34,848 bases of DNA from Thermoplasmatota archaeon (GTDB lineage Archaea; Thermoplasmatota; Penumbrarchaeia; Penumbrarchaeales; Penumbrarchaeaceae): the NCBI GenBank assembly GCA_965234725.1, contig CBDDUX010000109.1, positions 1 through 34,848 of the forward strand. Direction: 5' to 3'. The notes beneath the pieces were generated by a model that saw nothing but the letters and a program-made list of their open reading frames with translations, made no database searches and was not told the DNA's origin. Of the stretch, positions 18,863 through 21,568 are shown in pieces. Positions within the stretch are counted from its first letter, which is position 1, and the number at the start of each line of letters is the position of its first letter. The position numbers and the translations under genes are program-made.

Positions 18863-19380
18863 AGAGACCACCTTTTCCACTGTAAATGAACTTTGAACCT
18901 TTGTATTGATATTATAATGAAACGATTATGATATACCATTAGAGCTTATAATTAAATAAAAATCAAATATATTATATAAAAATCAACTAATTACATAAAT
19001 GAATATTGCTCATTGATGTAACACTATTTTAAAACGATACTTCAAGATTTTTCATATCTCTGCGAAATCGATCAATTGTAATTGCCACTGGAAAAATATT
19101 TAATATATTAATTCTTATTAATAAAAAGATGGATAACGTTAAATACTAAAATATATTATATATATATAAATATATTAATATATAAATATATAATATAATA
19201 TAAAGAAAAATATTTCCATTTGAAATTGGAAAATTCATTTTCGTTGAGAAGATCGATGTGGTCATCTATTTATCGATTAGTAATGAGCGAGATATGATCG
19301 AGGAGCTGTCTATTTGTCCATTTCAAATCTATTACACATCTCATAAGTTACTGTTACAGTGGAAATGGAAGGGGGTCTCT
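18863..19380. other. Candidate replication origin: inverted ORB-like boxes flanking an AT-rich unwinding element
   Basis: TTACAGTGGAAATGGAAGGGGG (+, 19354), TTACAGTGGAAAAGGTGG (-, 18885), mini-boxes TTTCCAGTGGCAAT (-, 19094-19081) and TTTCCATTTGAAAT (+, 19213-19226); 58 bp of pure A/T at 19147-19204. Confidence 0.6.
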
Positions 19381-20508
19381 TAAATCTGTATGTTCTTTTA
19401 CTATGGAATTATATTTCAAAAGTAATTCCTTATTTATGGCTAACCATGATCGCTTTTTTGAAAATGAAAGGCCATTTACTTTCATTTTTTTTCTAAGCTT
19501 TTCATCATCGATCAATCTGGATACATTATCTGTAAATGATTTCACATCCTTTGATATAGATATCAAACCGCCTTTGGATTGAGATATGATCTCAGCACAA
19601 CCTCCAACATTAGATACTACAGCCGGGACTCCAGAAGCCAATGATTCCTGTATTACATTACCGAAGGTTTCTGTAGTGGATGGAAAAAGAAGTATGTCTG
19701 CACTTGCATAAGCTGTAGAAAGTTCTTTACCTATTAAATAACCGGGAAATATAGCGTCAGGCATTTCCTTTTTCAGATCCTCTTCAGCAGGTCCGGATCC
19801 TAAAAGGACAAAAGCGACCCTATCTTTATATTTCTCTTTCAAACGATTTTTTACTGAAATGAATACTCTTAGGTCCTTGTACCAAACGAACCTCCCTGAA
19901 TACAGGATCACTATTTCTTCATCAATCCCCCATTTGGTTCGGATCTTCTTGGACCTGAAACGAGGATTGAAATCTTCTCCTTTGATGCCTCTGGACCAGA
20001 TGATAGAATTCGTTATTCCATTTTCTATCAGTCTTTCTTGCATTGCCAATGTTGGGACCAAAGAATATTTGGAGCTGTTATAGAACCTCTTCAGATAGCT
20101 CCACATGGGAGTTGTTAGGGCCCCTAACTGATAATAGGAAAGATATGAAGGGAAATCCGTATGGTAAACGGAGACTACTGGGATGTTATTCCTTCTTCCG
20201 TAGAGTAGGAACTCTCTCCCTACCAGGTCAGGAGTTGATATATGGATAATGTCCGGTGCGAACTCATCCAATTGTCTTTTTGTCCTTAATCCGAAAAATC
20301 CCACCTTATAATCAGGATAGATGATAATCGGAACAGAAGCTAGCTTTTGCACACTGATGGCCCCTTCATTCACTTCTTCTGATATCTCGGGAGACCAGAT
20401 CATCACTTTGTGGCCTTGTTCCTTAATACACCTGACGAATTCGTACAAGGTCCTCGCTACACCATCCTTGTCCTTTACAAATGTCCCAGTATACAAAGCG
20501 ATCTTCAT
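19354..20508 (-). CDS. Glycosyltransferase family 4 (GT-B)
   Basis: MKIAL..DGVARTL, YHTDFPSY, FPSTTETFGNVIQESLASGVP. Confidence 0.9.
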   Translation of the reverse strand: MKIALYTGTFVKDKDGVARTLYEFVRCIKEQGHKVMIWSPEISEEVNEGAISVQKLASVPIIIYPDYKVGFFGLRTKRQLDEFAPDIIHISTPDLVGREFLLYGRRNNIPVVSVYHTDFPSYLSYYQLGALTTPMWSYLKRFYNSSKYSLVPTLAMQERLIENGITNSIIWSRGIKGEDFNPRFRSKKIRTKWGIDEEIVILYSGRFVWYKDLRVFISVKNRLKEKYKDRVAFVLLGSGPAEEDLKKEMPDAIFPGYLIGKELSTAYASADILLFPSTTETFGNVIQESLASGVPAVVSNVGGCAEIISQSKGGLISISKDVKSFTDNVSRLIDDEKLRKKMKVNGLSFSKKRSWLAINKELLLKYNSIVKEHTDLRDPLPFPL

Positions 20509-20603
20509 CTTTTATCTATCATCCCAATTACTTCGTTCCATATAATCGATTTCATCGGTCCTTTGATCTCCATTTCCATATTTTCAAGAAATGGTATATA
20601 GAA

Positions 20604-21112
20604 AAATGGTGCGGATGCCGGGAGGGGTGGAACTGTATTTTAATTCACGATATCCAAGTTCTACCCCTGAGATGAAAGGTAAACCTATGAAATCAATTTC
20701 CTTTCATTGTGTCTAATCATTTTCAAGCACCGTTTCTCGAGACAATGTAAATTTGACGAGAGAGAAATGGTGCGGATGCCGGGATATTAGACATCGCCAA
20801 AATCAGAGATTTTGTCTGCCTTGATATTTCTATATCGTCAATTTAATAAGCCGAAATATCAAGGACCAAGGTTCAAATCCCTCTCGACAATCAAAGCACC
20901 ATTAAATGGATCAAAGAATAATAATGAAGTAATGGTGCGGATGCCGGGATTTGATTCCGCAAAATCATAGATTTTGCTCAGGTTGAGCATTTTATATCGT
21001 CAAAGCTATATGCCAATTGCTCAACCACCCAGGGGTTCAAATCCCTCACGTCAATATTTACACACCATTGCATTTTATTTCAAAGCAATGATAGCAATGG
21101 TGAATGGAAAAA
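20604..21112. repeat. tRNA-Gly-linked array: three units, each starting with the tRNA 3' end (17/18/22 nt) and carrying a hairpin core
   Basis: TGGTGCGGATGCCGGGA at 20607, 20768 and 20933, versus TAGTGCGGATGCCGGGA in the gene at 21113; spacing 161/165/180 bp. Confidence 0.9.
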
Positions 21113-21115
21113 TAG

Positions 21116-21188
21116 TGCGGATGCCGGGATTTGAACCCGAGCAAGTAGCTTGGGAAGCTACTGTCCTACCGAGCTAGACCACATCCGC
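21116..21188 (-). tRNA. tRNA-Gly (anticodon CCC), intronless, CCA not encoded
   Basis: GCGGATG/CATCCGC acceptor stem, GTAGC-TTCCCAA-GCTAC anticodon arm, GGTTCAAATCC T-loop, discriminator A followed by CTA. Confidence 0.95.
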
Positions 21189-21247
21189 AACCGAATTGGA
21201 CAAATGGATATTGTACAATAGATAAAGAAAGTTTTCAGGCCCCCTTT

Positions 21248-21568
21248 TCAATCATCACTTTGCTGGGCCTTCTTCTTCAATCTCTTCAATCTTTCCTTTG
21301 CCGTGAAGCCAGTGGCATATTCAAGAAGAATATTTCTCTTTCTTACGGTGTCAAGGACCTGATCATCTGGAATCTTTACTGTGTTGATCTCCAGAATGAG
21401 CTGAGTTTTGGATTCAAGCTTTATCTTGATGGGGTCCATGGCACCGTATCTTGATATAAGCCAATCCTCCTCCTTCGTGCAATTTCCAAAGACCTCTTCC
21501 ATCTTTTCGAATAATTTGTCCCCTTCAATTTCCTTGAAGTTCCCTTTCTTGATGTCAAGTCTTTCCAT
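21248..21568 (-). CDS. Conserved archaeal protein (DUF5611-like)
   Basis: IKKG, YGAM, N.LLEYATGFTAKERLK motif recalled from this family. Confidence 0.6.
   Translation of the reverse strand: MERLDIKKGNFKEIEGDKLFEKMEEVFGNCTKEEDWLISRYGAMDPIKIKLESKTQLILEINTVKIPDDQVLDTVRKRNILLEYATGFTAKERLKRLKKKAQQSDD

Follow-up and report, generated by a model that had tools for sequence, protein, structure and literature searches.

Structured, gene-free units that copy tRNA 3' ends in a Thermoplasmatota archaeon: possible serial insertions of mini-elements behind tRNA genes

In this work we describe an array of short structured units lying behind the tRNA-Gly(CCC) gene of a Thermoplasmatota archaeon (Penumbrarchaeales, Penumbrarchaeaceae), whose units belong to families also present behind other tRNA genes of this organism and of its relatives. 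The DNA analysed, here called the window, is a stretch of 34,848 nt (contig CBDDUX010000109.1, or C109, positions 1 to 34,848) from an assembly of 3.54 Mb in 114 contigs (GCA_965234725.1, here genome G000). On the minus strand of the window, the genes for RadA and a DUF5611 protein are followed by tRNA-Gly(CCC), the array and the gene for a GT4 glycosyltransferase. The tRNA gene, whose 3' end continues with CTA and not with CCA, is the only one recognized in the window by ARAGORN and Rfam. Behind it lie three units, 180, 165 and 161 nt long (units 1, 2 and 3 in the direction of the tRNA), each closed by an exact copy of the tRNA tail. The reverse complement of this tail, TGCGGATGCCGGGA, has exactly four plus-strand matches, at 20610, 20771, 20936 and 21116, a number reached by none of 100 shuffles. 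An earlier interpretation made from the letters alone (hereafter, the sequence-only reading) had noticed that the tRNA 3' end recurs every 161-180 bp, which these spacings confirm.

The units have neither open reading frames (ORFs) nor remnants of them, and no match to PF00589, PF00078 or PF01867 was found on C109, in agreement with the earlier statement that integrase, reverse transcriptase and cas genes are absent from the window. Among the catalogued Rfam families, cmscan of the window at the gathering threshold and of positions 20500-21250 at E ≤ 1 found tRNA only, besides a sub-threshold mascRNA match on the tRNA itself. An opposite-strand tRNA or a split-tRNA gene was also considered and rejected: the acceptor pairing is absent, and ARAGORN and Rfam both find a single tRNA.

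The units form two conserved families, X (units 1 and 2, of different subfamilies) and Y (unit 3). A unit runs from the base after the discriminator, or from CCA, to the discriminator of the tail copy that it contains. In tRNA orientation, an X unit consists of a T-rich trailer, a hairpin named H0, a short box (ATTGACGTGA or a variant of it), the T arm of the tRNA in antisense (GGGATTTGAACCC in unit 1), hairpin B, the triplet TGA, hairpin A (GCAAAATC nnn GATTTTGC), GGAA, and finally the sense T loop and tail. The second arm of H0 is antisense to the trailer and the last bases of the tail (for example, GCACCATTA / TAATGGTGC). A Y unit opens with CCA and a trailer that carries the box TCGTCAAT in the loop of H0, followed by an antisense arm ending in TGGTGC, the conserved single-stranded AAAATGATTAnACACG, hairpin H1, CTCA, and hairpin H2 with ATCGTCAAT again in its loop, after which the tail follows directly. 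By manual comparison of the sequences, the X core read on the opposite strand has the order of Y, that is, hairpin, TCA, hairpin with a ATCGTCAA loop, T arm. The sequence-only reading had found hairpins A and B, the loop motif ATATCGTCAA and GGTTCAAATCCCTC in two of the three units, and all of them are where it placed them; the architecture that it saw as shared by these two units is that of X, but its remaining unit turned out to belong to the second family, and the antisense tail copies had escaped it.

Near its left end, each unit repeats the tail or T arm of its own tRNA in antisense. In X, this antisense T arm matches the preceding tRNA even when the latter is unusual, as in Asp (GAATTTGAATC), Gln-CUG (CCAGATTCGGACTGG), Thr-CGU (GATTCGGACCCC), Thr-UGU (GATTCGAACTCT) and a Ser with four G/C; cognate copies were found for Gly, Glu, Asp, Gln, Ser, Thr and an intron-bearing tRNA on contig C75. 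The sense copy at the right end starts at a point that differs between families, at tRNA position 53 or 55/56 in X and at 60 in Y, where it always runs from T-loop position 60 to the discriminator (14 nt). With a fresh sense tail at the end of each unit, the tRNA stays intact, and earlier tails come to lie further downstream in the array. One X subfamily, with the stem GGTTGAGCA, lies behind Gly-CCC, Gly-UCC, Glu-UUC and the C75 tRNA, always with cognate flanks; its cores are near-identical at these tRNAs, and the trailers and H0 hairpins around them are unrelated. Several arrays end in a distally cut-off X that has no tail copy, and the trailer and H0 of the first unit recur after the last tail (38 identical nt on contig C63, 45 nt on C26).

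Two other readings of Y were dropped. A UGAUGA-like box occurs in hairpin H1 of some copies, but in the 27-copy alignment it has no conserved CUGA partner, as a C/D box or k-turn would require, and the TATA-like stretch in the H0 loop, considered as an archaeal promoter, is not conserved.

Table 1. Parts of the tRNA-Gly(CCC) locus, ordered along the window
Feature	Position	Strand	Basis or remark
GT4 glycosyltransferase gene	19354-20508	-	
Original 3' flank: CCA and trailer, with a weak H0-like inverted repeat	20509-20609	-	Orthologous in G004 and other relatives
Unit 3, family Y, 161 nt (unit 1 of the sequence-only reading)	20610-20770	-	Sequence; Y alignment
Unit 3, tail copy	20610-20623	-	
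Unit 3, hairpin H2	20624-20667	-	Loop motif at 20643-20654
Unit 3, hairpin H1	20672-20707	-	
Unit 3, antisense trailer/tail	20728-20739	-	
Unit 3, box TCGTCAAAT	20751-20759	-	
Unit 2, family X, 165 nt (unit 2 of the sequence-only reading)	20771-20935	-	Covariance model R1 match 20782-20884, 94.6 bits
Unit 2, tail copy	20771-20784	-	
Unit 2, hairpin A	20798-20814	-	
Unit 2, hairpin B	20819-20864	-	Arms 20819-20830/20853-20864
Unit 2, antisense T arm	20870-20881	-	
Unit 2, hairpin H0	20896-20938	-	Arms 20896-20904/20930-20938
Unit 1, family X, 180 nt (unit 3 of the sequence-only reading)	20936-21115	-	R1 match 20945-21048, 109 bits; from the base after the tRNA discriminator to the discriminator of its own tail copy
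Unit 1, sense T-loop-like X end and tail copy 1, GGAATCAAATCCCGGCATCCGCA on the minus strand	20936-20958	-	Sequence
Unit 1, hairpin A	20959-20977	-	Sequence; covariation
Unit 1, hairpin B	20981-21026	-	Arms 20981-20992/21015-21026; 12 pairs, all with compensatory changes
Unit 1, antisense copy of the tRNA T arm, GGGATTTGAACCC on the minus strand	21033-21045	-	Inverted repeat; fold
Unit 1, hairpin H0	21063-21102	-	Arms 21063-21071 and 21094-21102; sequence; single-stranded DNA fold
tRNA-Gly(CCC), tRNA positions 1-73	21116-21188	-	ARAGORN (start 21115/21116); Rfam RF00005, 64.4 bits

The structure of the units is kept while the sequence of the stems changes, as the sequence-only reading had argued from two units. 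In a MAFFT alignment of 20 X cores, 15 of the 20 pairs of hairpin B (12 bp) and hairpin A (8 bp) have changed on both sides. A covariance model, R1, built from this alignment matched 71 copies on the examined loci, corresponding to 67 distinct rows. Standard pairs occupy 95.9% of the cells in these rows, compared with 67.6% after shuffling and 37-52% when the pairing partner was slid, and there are 319 cells with a double change versus 71.5; none of 500 shuffles reached the observed values. The 67-row alignment was fitted to R1 and is hence favoured, a problem of which the MAFFT result is free. In family Y, the alignment of 27 copies supports three helices, H0, H1 and H2, with compensatory changes in 21 of 24 pairs.

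The sequence-only reading described the hairpins on the plus strand, and here it needs correction, for the tRNA-sense (minus) strand appears to be the folding one. Wobble pairs read on the tRNA-sense strand are G.U rather than A.C at a ratio of 41:6 in the model-fitted X alignment and, in the MAFFT alignments, of 13:4 for X and 34:16 for Y, counts taken over related rows and, in Y, with much of the excess coming from two columns. Because G.U exceeds A.C on that strand, the data are suggestive of a folding entity that is a single strand of tRNA polarity, RNA or DNA, rather than a protein-bound duplex. Folded as single-stranded DNA, unit 1 is predicted to form H0 and a three-way junction, hairpins B and A being closed by a helix between the antisense and sense T arms, with the antisense arm pairing with the sense T loop at 20946-20954; the fold has an energy of -33 kcal/mol (z -3.3), and none of 200 shuffles was as good. 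The closing helix reaches 7 or more contiguous pairs in 41 of the 68 distinct X copies, and 9 or more in 33; the mean is 8.0 contiguous pairs, compared with 4.5 for shuffled partners. The idea that the large loop of hairpin B acts as a bridge-RNA-like guide to the tail was rejected on 67 copies, in which the longest word shared by loop and tail is 2.79 (sense) and 2.88 (antisense), compared with 2.93 and 2.83 for random pairings of loops with tails.

The array behind tRNA-Gly(CCC) had been described as a single one; the array itself stands, but it is part of a system present at many tRNAs. Based on a search of 3 kb on either side of the 40 tRNA genes detected by ARAGORN in G000, on both strands, with the last 16 nt of each tRNA and up to 2 mismatches, 14 tRNAs have tail copies, from one to five each and 23 in all, numbers that depend on the thresholds and on an assembly in which tRNA-adjacent repeats often remain unassembled. 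All 23 copies lie downstream and on the same strand as the tRNA, with none upstream and none antisense. The five copies behind tRNA-Arg(GCG) mark four near-identical units of 143 nt and one of 202 nt; there are two units of 216 nt behind tRNA-Glu(CTC), units of 164 and 163 nt behind tRNA-Leu(GAG), and single units behind tRNA-Gly(GCC) (163 nt) and tRNA-Gly(UCC) (221 nt). Two intron-bearing tRNAs that ARAGORN missed likewise carry downstream tail copies, as do 22 of the 33 tRNAs of the congeneric genome G004 (one or more each). Units lie behind about half of the tRNA genes of this organism. At least five tRNAs of G000 end less than 80 nt from the downstream end of their contig, too near to it to be judged (C4:1-75, C103:24-98, C75:80-156, C87:20805-20882 and C30:20053-20130), where the assembly was probably broken by tail-copying repeats.

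Using nhmmer, we found 8 X and 13 Y copies in G000, all of them beside tRNA tails. Four of the Y copies adjoin tRNA-Ala tails that have no tRNA gene in their vicinity, presumably because large insertions moved them away or contig breaks intervened. The Y units with tRNA-Ala tails at C28:5463-5700, C38:73619-77594 and C12:9037-9187, which lie kilobases away from the tRNA-Ala genes or on other contigs, are each preceded by an extra hairpin module of 55 nt whose far arm is antisense to the Ala tail.

The covariance model search that the sequence-only reading had proposed extended these observations to relatives. R1 was run on 37 genomes of the class, a small and non-independent sample of drafts, and it matched, in addition to G000, all 23 other genomes of the same family as well as both genomes of a sister family, thus 25 of 25 sampled relatives in the order, with 1-18 matches in each of these genomes. 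Of 12 genomes of other families, three gave matches, all marginal (E ~8e-4). The best X match of each relative has a same-strand tRNA 26-220 nt upstream in 23 of 26 cases, and an opposite-strand one in none; two of the three exceptions are among the marginal matches, and 15 of the best matches are directly followed by the tail of that tRNA. Considering all 71 matches on the examined loci, 67 have a same-strand tRNA within 1 kb upstream.

A comparison of unit number and order between relatives, also suggested earlier, revealed that their content differs. The locus of tRNA-Gly(CCC) and the glycosyltransferase gene is syntenic among relatives. Where G000 has X, X and Y, G004, with flanks 86-92% identical, has both X units (its counterpart of unit 2 being orthologous) and then a different X-like element that replaces Y. 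G003 has only H0 and a truncated left part of X, four other genomes (G016, G001, G020 and G009) have other combinations, and in G013 there is nothing between the tRNA and the gene. At other tRNAs, units are present behind Asp and Leu-UAG in G004 and only a truncated X in G000, with the reverse situation at Gln-CUG. Thr-UGU, Thr-CGU, Lys and Val are followed by units in G004; their counterparts in G000 are followed by a coding region (both Thr) or by other unit-free sequence (Lys and Val).

Turnover was also found at closer range. Run X2, a metagenome from a different study, has contigs that share ~95-97% identity with the window, and in these one joint (20603 to 20765) omits exactly the 161-nt Y unit and another (20934 to 21115) exactly the 180-nt unit 1, each with 20 shared bases at the joint. 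There is thus a strain, closer to G000 than is G004, with a single unit in place of the three of G000. Among the runs other than X1, only small shares of the sequence words of the window were found. Because their content turns over in this way, the units are to be seen as mobile or rapidly exchanged, and not as fixed genes for small RNAs (sRNAs).

That the units are mobile, selfish elements devoid of genes is, in our view, highly probable. More specifically, the array may represent three insertions, two of X and one of Y, of gene-free structured mini-elements that target the 3' ends of tRNA genes, a tentative reading to which we give somewhat less than an even chance. The moving form would be a single-stranded circle of exactly one unit, made of the tRNA-sense strand. 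Once folded, its sense and antisense arms would pair into a duplex that mimics the T arm and tail of the tRNA gene, and, within the T loop or the tail, the circle and the chromosome would exchange one strand by means of a recombinase supplied in trans. The element would in this way provide the gene with a complete tail, the old tail would end up behind the insert, and repeated insertions would build an array, from which single units could be lost by the reverse reaction or by plain recombination between tails. As a further assumption, cores may be swapped between resident, tRNA-specific frameworks through the two flanking T-loop sites; such a swap is suspected because near-identical X cores carry unrelated trailers and H0 hairpins at different tRNAs. 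The data show how the units are built, that their hairpins covary, that they accompany many tRNAs and that they turn over; the single-stranded intermediate, the crossover site and the enzyme are what we infer, and this particular route, in which a recombinase acting in trans would integrate a folded strand at the T loop or tail, is possible but doubtful.

Several points weigh against three insertions by a folded strand. A crossover in the T loop needs a matching tail for each tRNA, yet one X subfamily serves several tRNAs, and the exchange of cores among frameworks is an extra step that the model needs. The G.U bias stems partly from a model-fitted alignment and from related sequences. The unit-precise absences can also result from ordinary recombination between 20-nt repeats, and the distally truncated, tail-less X at the ends of arrays, explained by decay, could be explained by aborted copying as well. 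Finally, no recombinase was identified, and no circular or excised form and no transcript of a unit were seen.

X is present in each of the 26 genomes of families f1 and f2 (G000 among them), and candidate enzymes were surveyed in this set of genomes. The Y1 transposase of IS200/IS605 (PF01797) was found in none of them, reverse transcriptase (PF00078) in six, which do not include G004 and G001, and Cas1 (PF01867) in five, which do not include G004 and G007, each of these with 18 X matches. Being too patchy among X-bearing genomes, these three enzymes are not general drivers. Tyrosine recombinases (PF00589) have seven matches in G000, and no result ties them to the units. A gene for an IS110-type transposase is present in five of the five genomes tested; the only one of G000 is at the end of a contig and has no tRNA tail in its vicinity, and this candidate was set aside for lack of a link. 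The HUH Rep families PF02407 and PF01446 had no match in five genomes, with control genomes equally silent, and no parent insertion sequence of the units was found, no systematic search for one having been made.

Some genes of this kind do lie near tRNA genes of G000. A solo Cas1 of 407 aa (C59:6-1229) points away from the 3' end of tRNA-Leu(CAG) (C59:2370-2456), with an ORF of 315 aa in between, and this region is a candidate casposon cut by the contig end. Two genes for tyrosine recombinases of 320 aa are located ~1 kb downstream of tRNA-Thr(CGU) and tRNA-Thr(GGU) (C102:6823-7296 and C44:20287-20766), and a related coding region lies directly 3' of tRNA-Thr(UGU) and tRNA-Thr(CGU), where G004 has X units. 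The insertions at the tRNA-Thr genes of G000 are probably ordinary integrated elements.

Four other explanations were weighed. If the units were functional structured sRNAs in the manner of rtT, made as part of the tRNA transcript and freed when tRNA-processing enzymes cut at the tail copies, one would understand their covarying conserved structure, the G.U bias on the very strand of a read-through transcript, and the fact that each unit opens with a T-rich trailer and closes at a tail. We nevertheless regard this as unlikely, as congeners differ in the number, order and family of their units, with none at the orthologous locus in G013, a closely related strain lacks individual units, and the tail copies have no 5' acceptor strand with which to form a tRNA-like minihelix; transcripts were not seen either, in RNA data that are very thin. 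Contigs of other organisms cover the tRNA in metatranscriptome runs X14 and X15, with flanks unlike those of the window, and a 31-nt segment spanning hairpin A of unit 2 (20792-20822) has a match with one mismatch in short contigs of the same runs, from other organisms or relatives; these matches are neither for nor against transcription of the units. The sequence-only reading had offered either an array of released sRNAs or serial insertions, and it is the latter that gained from the genome-wide spread, the turnover and the unit-precise absences. Quite improbable in our judgement is a transposon-like process, in which a transposase or casposase makes staggered cuts and the tail copy is a target-site duplication. 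A duplication at insertion would explain why each copy matches its own tRNA, the constant 14 nt of the Y copy is near the 15-bp duplication of the casposase of A. boonei, and a solo Cas1 lies beside tRNA-Leu(CAG) in G000; but Cas1 is missing from most X-bearing genomes, the start of the copied segment varies between families, the cognate antisense copies are left unexplained, and no terminal inverted repeats of casposon type were seen, the only inverted ends being the copies of the T arm.

We attach as little probability to the units being decayed att arms, left by the serial integration of plasmids or viruses with integrases, as to their arising with no dedicated enzyme at all; both appear very improbable. 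Larger tail-copied insertions do exist in G000 behind the C75 tRNA and tRNA-Ala, integrase genes lie downstream of two tRNA-Thr genes as seen above, and partial tRNA genes left by integrated elements of kilobase size are well known, as described in PMC9897764. Such remains, however, would hardly form conserved families, 140-220 nt in length, whose covarying hairpins span two genome families, with no ORF remnants, at about half of the tRNAs and in near-identical tandems such as the four behind tRNA-Arg. The process with no enzyme of its own would consist of fold-back priming and template switching at T-loop microhomology, followed by homologous recombination in the population. It accommodates junctions within T-loop sequence common to all tRNAs, X cores flanked on both sides by copies of the local tRNA in inverted orientation, arrays that end in a tail-less truncated X, and the repetition of the first trailer and H0 after the last tail. 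It fits less well with a strictly fixed orientation and with conserved boxes (TCGTCAAT, present two times in a Y unit, AAAATGATTAnACACG and the hairpin AAAATC nnn GATTTT) that point to a protein partner, and several switches per event would have to recur very frequently.

Returning to insertion by way of a folded strand, one larger insert resembles X at its right end. Behind the intron-bearing tRNA of C75, whose isotype is uncertain (ARAGORN with introns gives Ser(AGA), and the anticodon region looks by eye like CAU), there is an insert of 0.8 kb (C75:14887-15790) with genes for a DUF7557 protein of 65 aa and a ParE-family toxin of 90 aa. Its right end has an X-like layout, with a B-like hairpin, TAA, hairpin A (GGAAAATC TCT GATTTTCT) and a degenerate tail, so that X may be the empty form of a cassette able to carry genes. 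The tail of this tRNA occurs at 12 sites on six short contigs (C53, C72, C75, C85, C90 and C106), a count that leaves out two matches on C6 and C14 with no element-like flank, and these sites often share the same ~90-nt upstream flank, which suggests larger integrated elements or a cassette array at the C75 tRNA. On C106, two tail copies of the C75 type bracket two ORFs next to a CRISPR-Cas locus (a Cas4-Cas1 fusion, Cas2 and an ORF of the size of Cas3).

The T arm is known as a place of crossover for integrases, and the T loop is reportedly one of the sublocations that Williams distinguished in 2002. In shape, the T arm consists of two inverted arms of 5 bp around a spacer of 7 nt, which would make it a natural recombinase site. 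Taken further, the T arm and tail of tRNA genes might be the docking site of an integron-like system with the enzyme in trans, in which folded single strands enter as protein-less cassettes, mostly empty (X and Y) and some gene-carrying (the ParE toxin pair), stack into arrays and exchange cores through T-loop sites. We consider this broader scenario rather unlikely.

Several known systems are close parallels. CTXphi at dif and the attC sites of integrons are folded single-stranded sites recombined by an enzyme that the element does not encode. The units resemble integrative mobile elements exploiting Xer (IMEX) of the CTXphi type and attC in having no recombinase gene of their own, in inverted arms whose folding imitates the double-stranded target, in the layout predicted for the integrated form (target copy, loop, antisense copy, body and target copy), in arrays such as serial integration would give, and in a structure that is kept more than the sequence. 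They differ in using the tail and T arm of many tRNA genes instead of dif or attI, in being gene-free units of 140-220 nt with arms that match each tRNA, and in that any role of Xer or IntI would be hypothetical. The rtT repeats of E. coli tyrT (178 bp) lie in tandem directly downstream of a tRNA, each holding a copy of its 3' end. The layout is alike, as the sequence-only reading remarked when it proposed them as an analogue, but the rtT family (RF00391) was not matched, tRNA being the only Rfam family that was, and here there are many tRNAs, at least two families, antisense copies and turnover between strains.

Integrative elements of tRNA genes also place a direct repeat of the 3' part of the tRNA on either side of the insert and regenerate the tRNA; the units differ in having neither integrase nor genes, in being ~100 times smaller, in one family serving many tRNAs, and in their covarying hairpins. 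The MITEs (miniature inverted-repeat transposable elements) are likewise small, non-coding and multi-copy, with inverted ends (here the antisense and sense T arms), and presumably trans-mobilised, but the inverted ends of the units copy the local target, and their orientation and position relative to tRNA genes are strict. Casposons also go into tRNA 3' ends, where the T-loop region guides their insertion and 14-15 bp are duplicated; for the casposase of A. boonei, PMC5137440 gives a 15-bp duplication and the T-loop region of tRNA-Pro as the upstream recognition segment. The units are set apart from them by the absence of Cas1 from most X genomes, by the lack of terminal repeats, and by a duplicated segment that is wholly within the tRNA and variable in length. 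In Methanopyrus kandleri, about half of the tRNA genes have an unexplained palindromic motif ~10 bp downstream (PMC5217627); its position is like that of hairpin H0, and it may be a related phenomenon. In the full-text literature searched, which leaves most subscription journals outside, we found no account of structured mini-elements that lack genes and copy the tails of tRNAs.

In practical terms, repeats such as these break assemblies and can pass for tRNA pseudogenes, and if our reading is true, it would explain arrays of tRNA-end fragments that annotation pipelines misread. Genes for tRNAs are classic landing sites of viruses and plasmids, and in this archaeon about half of them are occupied by elements that consist of structure only. 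If a host enzyme and a folded single strand are indeed involved, the principle of CTXphi and integrons would extend to archaea and to a universally conserved target.

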